From the IMG/VR virus record IMGVR_UViG_3300037067_026753: a DNA stretch of 64,000 bases. The stretch is one strand, 5' to 3'. Positions within the stretch are counted from its first letter, which is position 1, and every line of letters starts with the position of its first letter. Source of the DNA: a virus. A model generated the notes under the pieces. It saw nothing but the letters and a program-made list of their open reading frames with translations. It was not told the origin of the DNA and ran no database searches. Position numbers and translations under genes: made by a program. Shown here piece by piece: positions 46,145-46,293 of this stretch.

Positions 46145-46293
46145 AAGTCATGTCTTTTAACCTTGGAAGCTTACATTTTTTTCGTCAGTTCAAATCTGAC
46201 TGCTCCACCGGCGGTGGAGTATGGCCGAGTGGTTTAAGGCACCCAACTGCTAATTGGACAAAGAAAACAGCTCTCAGAACTCAGACATGACTT
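46145..46293 (+). ncRNA. circularly permuted tRNA-Ser(GCT)-like / YrlA-type Y-RNA candidate. Order: T-arm (GTCAG TTCAAAT CTGAC), 3' acceptor strand, GGC loop, 5' acceptor strand, D-arm (GCC GAGTGGTTTAA GGC), anticodon arm (loop CTGCTAA). Termini pair through the flanking 11-bp inverted repeat. Unit 4
   Basis: manual fold; no T-arm downstream of anticodon arm, T-arm instead upstream. Confidence 0.5.

Follow-up and report, generated by a model that had tools for sequence, protein, structure and literature searches.

Genomic organization of the locus

We analysed a 64,000-nt stretch of viral DNA (IMG/VR record IMGVR_UViG_3300037067_026753), hereafter referred to as the window, with a focus on unit 4, a 151-nt RNA element at 46144–46294 (+) that had been predicted from its sequence to be a circularly permuted tRNA-Ser(GCU)-like gene. 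The window is of phage origin: it encodes a portal protein, a large terminase and a head protease, and the contigs related to it are huge-phage contigs of IMG/VR. Unit 4 lies in an intergenic region of approximately 950 nt, which is overlapped by no open reading frame (ORF) of at least 50 aa on either strand. Its end is separated by 382 nt from the start of a same-strand ORF for a 516-aa protein (46676–48226, +), which we identify below, from its modelled fold, as a cryptic ortholog of Ro60.

The original prediction considered unit 4 singly. The element is real, but it is only the last of four tandem units that occupy 45656–46294 and share one base module. In all four units, the module is laid out in the same order, namely, outer helix, 5′ loop UUUAAC, middle helix, UACAU, insert, A-rich run, 3′ strand of the middle helix, AACUC and 3′ strand of the outer helix. 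The outer helices measure 10–12 bp and differ in sequence in each unit, while the middle helix is formed by the pairing of GUGCU with AGCAU or, in unit 4, of AAGCU with AGCUC.

Units were located by a motif-plus-helix scan and by R1, a covariance model derived from 18 of the permuted units; in the 64-kb window, R1 gave four matches, corresponding exactly to units 1–4. Unit 1 (45656–45796, +; R1 score, 51.5 bits) contains a complete tRNA in the normal order with an encoded CCA, which ARAGORN calls tRNA-Asn with the anticodon AUU. Unit 2 (45819–45975, +; 48.5 bits) has no D-arm and combines a stem-loop with a T-arm (GACG-TTCGATT-CGTC) and a closed hairpin of 18 bp; its minimum free energy is −52.5 kcal/mol (z = −6.1), and homologous units were found in the related loci L001 and L003. 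Unit 3 (45989–46124, +; 52.9 bits) carries a complete tRNA-like insert in the normal order, which has an A as residue 33 and is called tRNA-Gln(UUG). The permuted tRNA-like form is found in unit 4 (122.8 bits). The tRNA calls made by ARAGORN and Rfam in the array were those at 45689–45764 (unit 1) and 46019–46094 (unit 3), both on the + strand. In L001, one of the closest relatives of the window, the unit 1 ortholog has the anticodon UAA, with changes at 7 of the 17 anticodon-arm positions versus approximately 4 of 59 elsewhere, and the unit 3 ortholog has a 6-nt loop, a 2-nt anticodon in the ARAGORN call and no CCA. A search of deposited phage genomes for DNA-level relatives of the array gave none beyond the generic tRNA similarity of unit 1.

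The only terminator of the array is located 3′ of unit 4 (46315–46353, +) and comprises a 12-bp stem (46315–46346) followed by a T-run, in agreement with the predicted presence of a strong terminator, rather than a T-arm, after the anticodon arm. In L003 and L004, an equivalent terminator likewise stands after the final unit. Upstream of unit 1, a weak sigma-70-like promoter match (TTGTTA-18-TATATT, 45619–45648, +) may mark the start of the array transcript; promoter-like matches were not above chance (2 found versus 4.9 expected), and it is the position alone that is suggestive. The array thus looks like one transcription unit, extending from approximately 45.62 kb to the terminator at 46.32–46.35 kb.

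Architecture of unit 4

The T-arm, acceptor hairpin, D-arm and anticodon loop CTGCTAA were all located where they had been predicted, as was every other element. The 5′ strand of the outer helix, TAAGTCATGTCT (46144–46155, +), pairs with AGACATGACTTA (46283–46294, +); the flanking inverted repeat is therefore present as predicted, but it extends over 12 bp rather than 11. The 5′ internal-loop motif UUUAAC (TTTAAC in DNA; 46156–46161, +) conforms to the family consensus YYUAAC and occupies the place of the GNCGAA sequence of the YrlA family of Y RNAs. It is followed by the 5′ strand of the middle helix, CTTGGAAGCT (46162–46171, +), which forms approximately 9 bp with its partner at 46269–46277, and by the invariant junction UACAU (TACAT in DNA; 46172–46176, +). 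A linker of six U residues and one C (46177–46183, +) leads into the T-arm; this C is the equivalent of position 48 and the Levitt partner of G15, and the U-run can pair with the A-rich stretch at 46260–46267.

The T-arm (46184–46200, +) is composed of GTCAG (46184–46188), TTCAAAT (46189–46195) and CTGAC (46196–46200). Next is the closed acceptor-equivalent hairpin (46201–46221, +), in which the 3′ strand TGCTCCACC (46201–46209) precedes the loop GGC (46210–46212) and the 5′ strand GGTGGAGTA (46213–46221), giving 9 bp including one G–U pair. U8 and G9 (TG, 46222–46223, +) lie between this hairpin and the D-arm (+), which is of the class-II type, with GCC (46224–46226), the loop GAGTGGTTTAA (46227–46237; also written GAGUGGUUUAA) and GGC (46238–46240). 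The residue after the D-arm is A26 (46241, +). The anticodon arm (46242–46258, +) consists of CCCAA (46242–46246), the loop CUGCUAA (CTGCTAA in DNA; 46247–46253), with the anticodon GCT at 46249–46251, and TTGGA (46254–46258); its stem has four Watson–Crick pairs and one C–A mismatch. The A-rich 3′ linker CAAAGAAAAC (46259–46268, +), in which an A-rich run is kept at the same place across the family, is followed by the 3′ strand of the middle helix, AGCTCTCAG, and the 3′ loop motif R-ACU-Y (AACTC, 46278–46282), which together span 46269–46282 (+). By inspection, the loops of the base measure 6–7 nt/5 nt and 5 nt/1–10 nt.

Evidence for the permuted fold

No contiguous tRNA was called at unit 4 by ARAGORN or Rfam, and the better-scoring normal tRNA-Ser fold named in the original prediction as the competing structure was thus not found. 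The sole tRNA-type match at this position was a partial match of 16.6 bits covering the D-arm and anticodon arm, and a search of the unit 4 flanks for known ribozymes or other Rfam families gave nothing credible at E up to 10. When the two halves were swapped in silico into the normal tRNA order, ARAGORN called tRNA-Ser(GCT) in unit 4 and also in its L001 counterpart. These two copies are 87% identical, and their acceptor hairpins differ at six pair positions, yet all of these positions are paired in both.

We then compared 39 distinct permuted units, all ordered T-arm, closed hairpin, D-arm, anticodon arm. Standard pairs occupied 92.2% of the alignment cells, a figure that is somewhat inflated by fitting of the alignment to the model, versus 61.9 ± 0.9% in column shuffles and 31–42% in a control with slid partners. 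This fitting bias is tempered by the pairwise comparison of the window and L001 copies, in which the six changed acceptor pair positions already stay paired. Two-sided changes were detected at 38 of the 39 pairs, and each of the six helices covaries. The outer helix was 99% paired, with two-sided changes at all eight modelled pairs, and the middle helix was 77% paired (9 of 9 pairs covarying). Among the tRNA-like arms, pairing amounted to 98.5% in the T-arm (4 of 5 pairs covarying), 100% in the D-arm and 95.8% in the anticodon arm (5 of 5), and all nine pairs of the acceptor-equivalent helix covary. The Levitt pair 15:48, formed by the third D-loop nucleotide and the nucleotide preceding the T-stem, was A:U in 21 units and G:C in 15, and hence fits 36 of the 39.

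These results indicate that the fold of unit 4 is that of a tRNA in a rearranged order, far beyond chance, with the chain ends leaving at the variable arm as had been predicted; both the call obtained with swapped halves and the covariation support this order. The predicted pairing of the U-run with the A-rich run was only partly borne out. It amounts to 6 bp in unit 4, but its support across the family is weak, with 3.9 bp versus 3.5 ± 0.15 bp for mismatched partners. A conserved variable-arm helix of these two runs, being marginally supported, was omitted from the consensus structure.

The neighbouring Ro60 ortholog

The 516-aa protein encoded downstream of the array gave no match in a phmmer search of the PDB, and in PHROGs only a weak match to phrog_850 (‘RNA-binding protein’). 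Hundreds of metagenomic homologs were found on contigs of up to 512 kb, for which the precomputed Pfam annotation comprises only occasional von Willebrand factor A (vWA) families. To this protein, an AlphaFold2 model based on 40 homologs (pLDDT 82, pTM 0.74) assigns a HEAT-repeat ring and a vWA domain with a DxSxS MIDAS motif, of which D337, S339 and S341 are invariant among the aligned homologs. In a Foldseek search of the PDB, the top 13 matches were all Ro60/TROVE structures (E 3e-11 to 1e-8, TM approximately 0.5–0.6, approximately 520–590 aligned columns), including Xenopus and human Ro60, Deinococcus radiodurans Rsr and the Ro60 of Thermus phage phiLo (9KOP, 9L5Y), and isolated vWA domains ranked below this set. 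Based on this full-length match of the predicted fold, we identify the protein as a cryptic Ro60 ortholog, and by analogy with known systems it is the presumed partner of the array RNAs.

The RNA family and its linkage to Ro60

Related loci were collected by Ro60 alignment and included 14 from IMG/VR, 80 from metagenomes, the 595-kb phage LR756511.1 and 11 from GTDB. In 663 kb of sequence from 95 sources, R1 gave 161 matches at E up to 1e-3. The array and the Ro60 gene occur together in approximately 60 huge-phage and some bacterial loci; in 58 of 59 loci the array precedes the Ro60 gene, and in 47 of these both lie on one strand. This linkage persists down to 35–40% protein identity and includes the published phage LR756511.1, an unannotated record that was the one deposited phage genome found to carry the 516-aa protein. 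The huge-phage carriers are uncultured, with contigs of 120–595 kb. Arrays contain up to seven units, and 38 of the 40 arrays with a permuted unit have this unit last. In L004, a HEARO RNA (RF02033, 90 bits, above the gathering score) is located at 2112–2297 (+), directly upstream of the unit array.

The base module was highly conserved across 106 distinct units. UACA was present in 106/106; the 3′ motif R-ACU-Y had A in 105/106, C in 103/106 and U in 105/106; the GC/GC core of the middle helix was kept in at least 97/106; and the 5′ loop YYUAAC had A in 104/106 and C in 90/106. Because this one base carries very different inserts, including complete tRNAs, permuted tRNAs and non-tRNA hairpins, its conservation points to a common protein-binding platform.

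Ro60 relatives of 36–41% identity with UACA/ACUY-based units alongside were also found in Chloroflexota, Myxococcota, Planctomycetota and Acidobacteriota (L098, L103, L106 and others); in Dictyobacter alpinus (NZ_BIFT01000001.1, L098), the Ro60-side RNA units lie at 3251–3918. The system thus extends beyond phages, unless the bacterial copies belong to prophages.

Comparison with YrlA and other known systems

YrlA RNAs are defined by their location within approximately 4 kb of a Ro60 ortholog, usually on its strand, by the 5′ sequence GNCGAAN0-1G and by the order V, T, AS (acceptor stem), D, with the paired ends in the position of the anticodon stem (Chen et al. 2014, PMC4201824), and have been described as circularly permuted tRNAs whose acceptor stem is closed (Wang et al. 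2018, bioRxiv 10.1101/312249). The unit 4 family resembles YrlA (RF02553) in several respects. A Ro60 ortholog is encoded nearby, at a distance of a few hundred nt to a few kb and in most cases on the same strand, and there are several Y RNAs per locus. Pairing of the ends yields a long stem that contains an internal loop, and the distal part contains a T-arm, a closed acceptor-like hairpin of variable length and a D-arm. A UA/UG dinucleotide joins the acceptor stem to the D-arm, and the Levitt pair covaries, which Chen et al. took as evidence for a tRNA-like tertiary fold of YrlA (PMC4201824). In addition, a conserved YUAY-like element marks the boundary between the stem and the tRNA-like part, and we infer that the invariant UACA of the unit 4 family overlaps the position of the conserved YUAY of YrlA.

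The two differ in their breakpoint. In YrlA there is no anticodon loop, and the ends leave via the position of the anticodon stem (PMC4201824; bioRxiv 10.1101/312249), whereas in unit 4 and 38 relatives the D-arm is followed by a stem with a loop of 7 nt, and the ends emerge at the position of the variable arm, between anticodon arm and T-arm. The original prediction equated the topology of unit 4 with that described for YrlA; the adjoining Ro60 ortholog and the sub-threshold YrlA matches of relatives indicate that the kind of RNA was correctly recognized, but the topologies are not identical because of this difference. Furthermore, the GNCGAAN0-1G sequence is replaced in the unit 4 family by YYUAAC ... 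UACA ... R-ACU-Y, the arrays reach seven units and include complete tRNAs in the normal order, and the partner Ro60 is invisible to Pfam TROVE.

Sub-threshold matches to RF02553 were obtained for the permuted units of L003 and L004 and for units in L013 and L014 (24–31 bits), and for units in bacterial relatives, including D. alpinus (33–46 bits, E down to 4e-7). These matches were confined to the T-AS-D core, at model positions of approximately 17–92. More distant relatives, among them L011, L014 and L098, show the classic YrlA order on the same UACA/ACUY base, and the Dictyobacter unit has an anticodon-like hairpin (loop CUUCUAA) 5′ of the T-arm. Since the YrlA order is thus found on the same base, one base module carries two different permutation breakpoints. 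Literal membership of unit 4 in YrlA was rejected on the grounds of the missing motif, of scores that fall short of the gathering threshold and of the different breakpoint. Nevertheless, unit 4 has the architecture of a Y RNA, with a length of 151 nt (approximately 80–150 nt for the class), an end-pairing stem with an internal loop, a distal module and covarying helices. We conclude that unit 4 is most likely a new structural variant of the YrlA/Y-RNA kind and is part of a large, unannotated Ro60–RNA system of huge phages.

Phage genes for Ro60 with upstream Y-like RNAs have been described in mycobacteriophages, CcrColossus, phage G and phiLo (PMC4201824, PMC12135203). Like the window, phiLo carries a Ro60 gene with Y-like RNA genes (Yrl1/Yrl2) directly upstream, and its RNAs share the design of a stem, an internal bulge and a stem (PMC12135203); they were, however, found via CGAA motifs and are not described with anticodon arms or complete tRNAs. 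The unit 4 family differs from these phage systems in its occurrence in uncultured huge phages and in its operon with ubiquitin-like (Ubl), OB-fold, JAB and E1-like genes. The D. radiodurans Y RNA Yrn1 is Ro60-bound and co-transcribed with a tRNA, and has a T-arm and a possible anticodon-arm-like hairpin with a 5-bp stem (PMC4201824). The T-arm and the possible anticodon-arm-like hairpin are shared with unit 4, but the Ro60-binding helix of Yrn1 is metazoan-like, its ‘anticodon’ loop measures 6 nt, a clear D-arm is missing and the arms follow another order. We found no account of the array family in the literature searched, which excludes most subscription journals.

In the permuted tRNA genes of Cyanidioschyzon merolae and some archaea, a circular intermediate is cut at a bulge-helix-bulge, RNase P and tRNase Z open the acceptor end, and the product is a normal decoding tRNA whose anticodon is conserved. 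Unit 4 shares with these genes the order in which the 3′ half (T-arm and acceptor 3′ strand) precedes the 5′ half (acceptor 5′ strand, D-arm and anticodon arm) and is joined to it across the acceptor end. In contrast, the acceptor hairpin of the unit 4 family is either short-looped or very long, its anticodon is variable and its ends lie in a conserved platform-like helix. On inspection of the base, no bulge-helix-bulge (3-4-3) was seen at the termini of unit 4.

Variation of the anticodon arm and acceptor hairpin

Positional orthologs of unit 4 carry the triplets GCU, UCU, AUU, AUC, AAG, GUU and others, with GCU in the window and L001, UCU in L015, AUU in L004 versus AUC in L019, and AAG in L003. 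Approximately half of the loops of the 39 permuted units are non-canonical, being either without U33 or 8 nt long. The closed hairpin has 9 bp and a GGC loop in the window, 7 bp and a UUAU loop in L015, a close relative, and as many as approximately 30 bp elsewhere, and it is often capped by a stable UUCG or GAAA tetraloop. Unit 4 does not encode a discriminator-CCA. Among the 67 non-permuted units, 34 were called as tRNAs by ARAGORN, with anticodons scattered over the code and four aberrant 2-nt ‘anticodons’. A decoding role is not supported, because the anticodon loops are variable and often non-canonical and the length of the closed hairpin is variable; the maturation into a decoding permuted tRNA-Ser that the original prediction implied is thus not supported either.

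Applied to unit 4 itself, such a role would require a genuine permuted or split tRNA-Ser(GCU), in which RNase P cuts the GGC loop, the 3′ piece is trimmed and receives CCA, SerRS charges the product and AGY codons are decoded, the two pieces being held together by the acceptor helix and by the long basal helix in the manner of a variable arm. This would fit the tRNA-Ser(GCU) call for the swapped halves, the class-II D-arm, the canonical CUGCUAA loop and the G at the discriminator-equivalent position, as well as the emergence of the basal helix where the SerRS-recognized long variable arm would be. It would also fit the absence of tRNA-Ser from the 13 tRNAs called in the window, and there is a precedent in M. 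smegmatis, whose YrlA RNA, with an acceptor stem of 7 bp, undergoes RNase P cleavage and acquires CCA in vivo (PMC4201824). We nevertheless regard this alternative as very improbable, given the switching of the triplet between close relatives, the frequency of non-canonical or 8-nt loops, an acceptor equivalent of 7 to approximately 30 bp that is frequently tetraloop-capped, and the lack of an encoded CCA. Furthermore, the anticodon stem has just four Watson–Crick pairs, and the ends are locked in a conserved, motif-bearing helix that is common to non-tRNA units.

An isolated change was observed between L025 and L026, two loci from different samples that are identical over approximately 5.3 kb except for eight substitutions. 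All eight are in the anticodon arm of one unit (positions 2932–2950 of the unit at 2873–3004, −), where the loop UAAUCAA is replaced by UUUCUAA with compensatory changes in the stem. Hypervariability of the anticodon arms as a general rule was rejected, since 17 near-identical locus pairs showed no general excess in the units (3.2 versus 2.0 per kb), and a diversity-generating retroelement was also rejected, since the substitutions are not adenine-specific. The swap remains an isolated, unexplained event.

This swap, being the only difference between the two contigs, could be taken to indicate that the anticodon arm is the working end of the units, which would then act as free tRNA decoys or anti-defence RNAs against host tRNA-targeting nucleases or further defence proteins that bind tRNA, or as sensors or substrates of the nearby RNA-repair enzymes, with no need for Ro60. 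The conservation of the anticodon-arm shape despite the varying triplet, the faster divergence of the unit 1 anticodon arm compared with the rest of the tRNA body, and the RtcB, RNA ligase and polynucleotide kinase (PNK)-like kinase encoded nearby all agree with this possibility. We consider it quite improbable, because the near-identical loci show no general excess of changes in the units, and triplet variation is equally expected from a lack of constraint. A role as free decoys would also leave the conserved base module and the linkage to Ro60 unexplained, and it could form a sub-case of the Ro60-tethered function proposed below.

Proposed function of the unit 4 family

Taken together with the properties of characterized Ro60/Y RNA/PNPase particles, these observations suggest that unit 4 is probably a Y-type RNA and a divergent relative of YrlA, of which the base would dock the co-encoded Ro60, while the tRNA-mimicking apex would recruit or block a tRNA-recognizing factor or gate Ro60. 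The array would be transcribed from the promoter region near 45.62 kb to the terminator, with unit 4 as its last member. The base module formed by the paired 5′ and 3′ ends would be where the Ro60 ortholog, whose gene starts 382 nt downstream, docks, and the apical module, with its T-arm, closed acceptor-like hairpin, D-arm, anticodon arm and 15:48 Levitt pair, is predicted to fold into the L-shape of a tRNA. With its acceptor end closed into a hairpin and its chain ends emerging at the variable-arm position, unit 4 could not act as an ordinary tRNA. By analogy with the particles of Deinococcus, Salmonella and Thermus phage phiLo, the RNA may gate Ro60 or tether it to tRNA-recognizing or RNA-processing factors during infection, and candidate effectors might include host PNPase, RNase P, modification enzymes and the co-encoded OB-fold protein.

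Several findings weigh against this interpretation. The association of the unit 4 family with Ro60 is deduced from synteny and analogy, and 11 arrays are located on the strand opposite to Ro60. GNCGAAN0-1G, the proposed Ro60 contact, was found in the 5′ base strand of 0 of the 106 distinct units, and in none of the window array. The Rfam model RF02553 did not reach its gathering score (69 bits) on any member of the family, and the window copy gave no match at E up to 10. On the protein side, the 516-aa sequence matched no Pfam family at E up to 0.01, including the TROVE hidden Markov model, and its identity to solved Ro60s is just 11–15%. The inflation of the pairing figures noted above belongs here as well, as does the point that RNase P could release the complete tRNAs of units 1 and 3, in which case the base might function in processing and not in the docking of Ro60.

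The last point leads to an alternative in which the array is an expression and processing cassette for tRNAs and tRNA-like RNAs, and the base is a Ro60-independent scaffold for processing, stability or folding, recognized by, for example, RNase III, RNase E or a nuclease of the phage. RNase III typically acts on long irregular helices that flank RNAs. The linkage to Ro60 would then reflect a common theme of RNA metabolism and no physical complex, which would agree with the divergent orientation of 11 arrays and the absence of the known Ro60 motif. Likewise, units 1 and 3 are complete tRNAs, with the CCA of unit 1 encoded, and ARAGORN calls tRNAs in half of the non-permuted units (34 of 67). 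On the other hand, single-stranded UACA, ACU and AAC are kept while Ro60 diverges to approximately 35% identity, which fits a co-evolving partner better than a generic nuclease. No useful product could be released from the permuted and non-tRNA units, many of the embedded ‘tRNAs’ have degenerate anticodon loops, and 58 of 59 loci tightly link the array and Ro60. A mere processing cassette is therefore unlikely.

If the base does dock Ro60, a more specific function may be considered, in which the permuted units are Ro60-tethered tRNA surrogates with the anticodon arm as the working end. They might be exchangeable baits for host anticodon nucleases and tRNA-targeting defences, or two-piece chargeable tRNAs that are opened by RNase P, as happens to the YrlA RNA of M. 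smegmatis, and held on Ro60. We consider this unlikely; it is suggested by the retention of a complete anticodon arm and class-II features and by the emergence of the docking helix at the variable-arm site. In its bait version, such a surrogate would serve a machine of phage Ro60, the OB-fold protein and the Ubl-E1-JAB proteins. With the anticodon arm as the working end, the swap between L025 and L026 would be a trace of selection.

Under the interpretation of unit 4 as a Y-type RNA, Ro60–Y RNA particles appear to be far commoner in giant phages than annotated, as the protein escapes Pfam and the RNAs escape Rfam, while the pair occurs in approximately 60 loci from many environments. The role of the tRNA-like module of Y RNAs is an unsolved problem, for which this family offers one base combined with complete tRNAs, with tRNAs that lack the acceptor stem, with permuted tRNAs of two breakpoints and with non-tRNA hairpins. 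Units 1 and 3, annotated as tRNA-Asn(AUU) and tRNA-Gln(UUG), are probably also Y-type RNAs; because such tRNA calls probably represent Y-type RNAs, the tRNA counts of huge phages and the codon-usage inferences drawn from them may be too high.

The Ro60 operon and its surroundings

The Ro60 gene is part of a conserved operon in the order orf83, Ro60, orf296, JAB and ThiF, which were present in 83, 94, 70, 43 and 29 of 94 loci, respectively, the counts of the later genes being limited by flank length. The first gene, orf83 (46423–46674, +), encodes 83 aa and ends in ...VRPNARWGGH. Its homologs end at a conserved FG/WG glycine (...VRPxxxFG) or one to four residues beyond, and the protein looks ubiquitin-like or ThiS-like on account of this C-terminal glycine; profile searches of Pfam and the PDB gave no meaningful match. 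The gene downstream of Ro60, orf296 (48219–49064, +), encodes 281 aa from the ATG at 48219. Profile searches of the PDB and Pfam gave no meaningful match for this protein either, but its AlphaFold2 model (pLDDT 87) contains OB folds, with weak structural neighbours of the S1/IF1/cold-shock type, and it is a possible RNA-binding partner or effector. The operon continues with a JAB/MPN-like peptidase (49030–49443, +; Pfam Prok-JAB, E 5.8e-4, below the curated cut-off) and a ThiF/E1-like protein (49805–50437, +; Pfam ThiF, E 3e-24). Judged by sequence, orf83 and the JAB-like and ThiF/E1-like genes look like a phage ubiquitin-like conjugation module around Ro60. The conservation of Ubl-like, Ro60, OB-fold, JAB and E1-like genes in one operon suggests an unexplored link between a Ro60 particle and ubiquitin-like conjugation.

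Downstream of this operon, an AAA_33 (polynucleotide-kinase-like) protein (50437–50949, +) is encoded just before a PARP-like protein with WGR, regulatory and catalytic domains (50906–52318, +), and both genes are kept at this place in the closest relatives, L001 and L015. The window encodes a PNK-like kinase, an RNA ligase and RtcB; bacterial rsr-yrlA-rtcBA loci likewise pair Ro60 and YrlA with RNA-repair genes (PMC7790460). The RNA ligase (39367–40374, +) has an N-terminal HNH-like region, and RtcB (59786–62179, +) is unusually long, with 797 aa and a profile match in two stretches that may indicate an insertion or intein; both genes are within approximately 13 kb of the Ro60 locus. On the other side of the array, a divergent gene directly upstream (41797–45474, −) encodes a 1225-aa protein that is repeat-rich (TPR-like by eye) and has an N-terminal hydrophobic segment. 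Approximately 8 kb from the array, 11 conventional tRNA genes, none of them for tRNA-Ser, are clustered at 35364–37781 (−).

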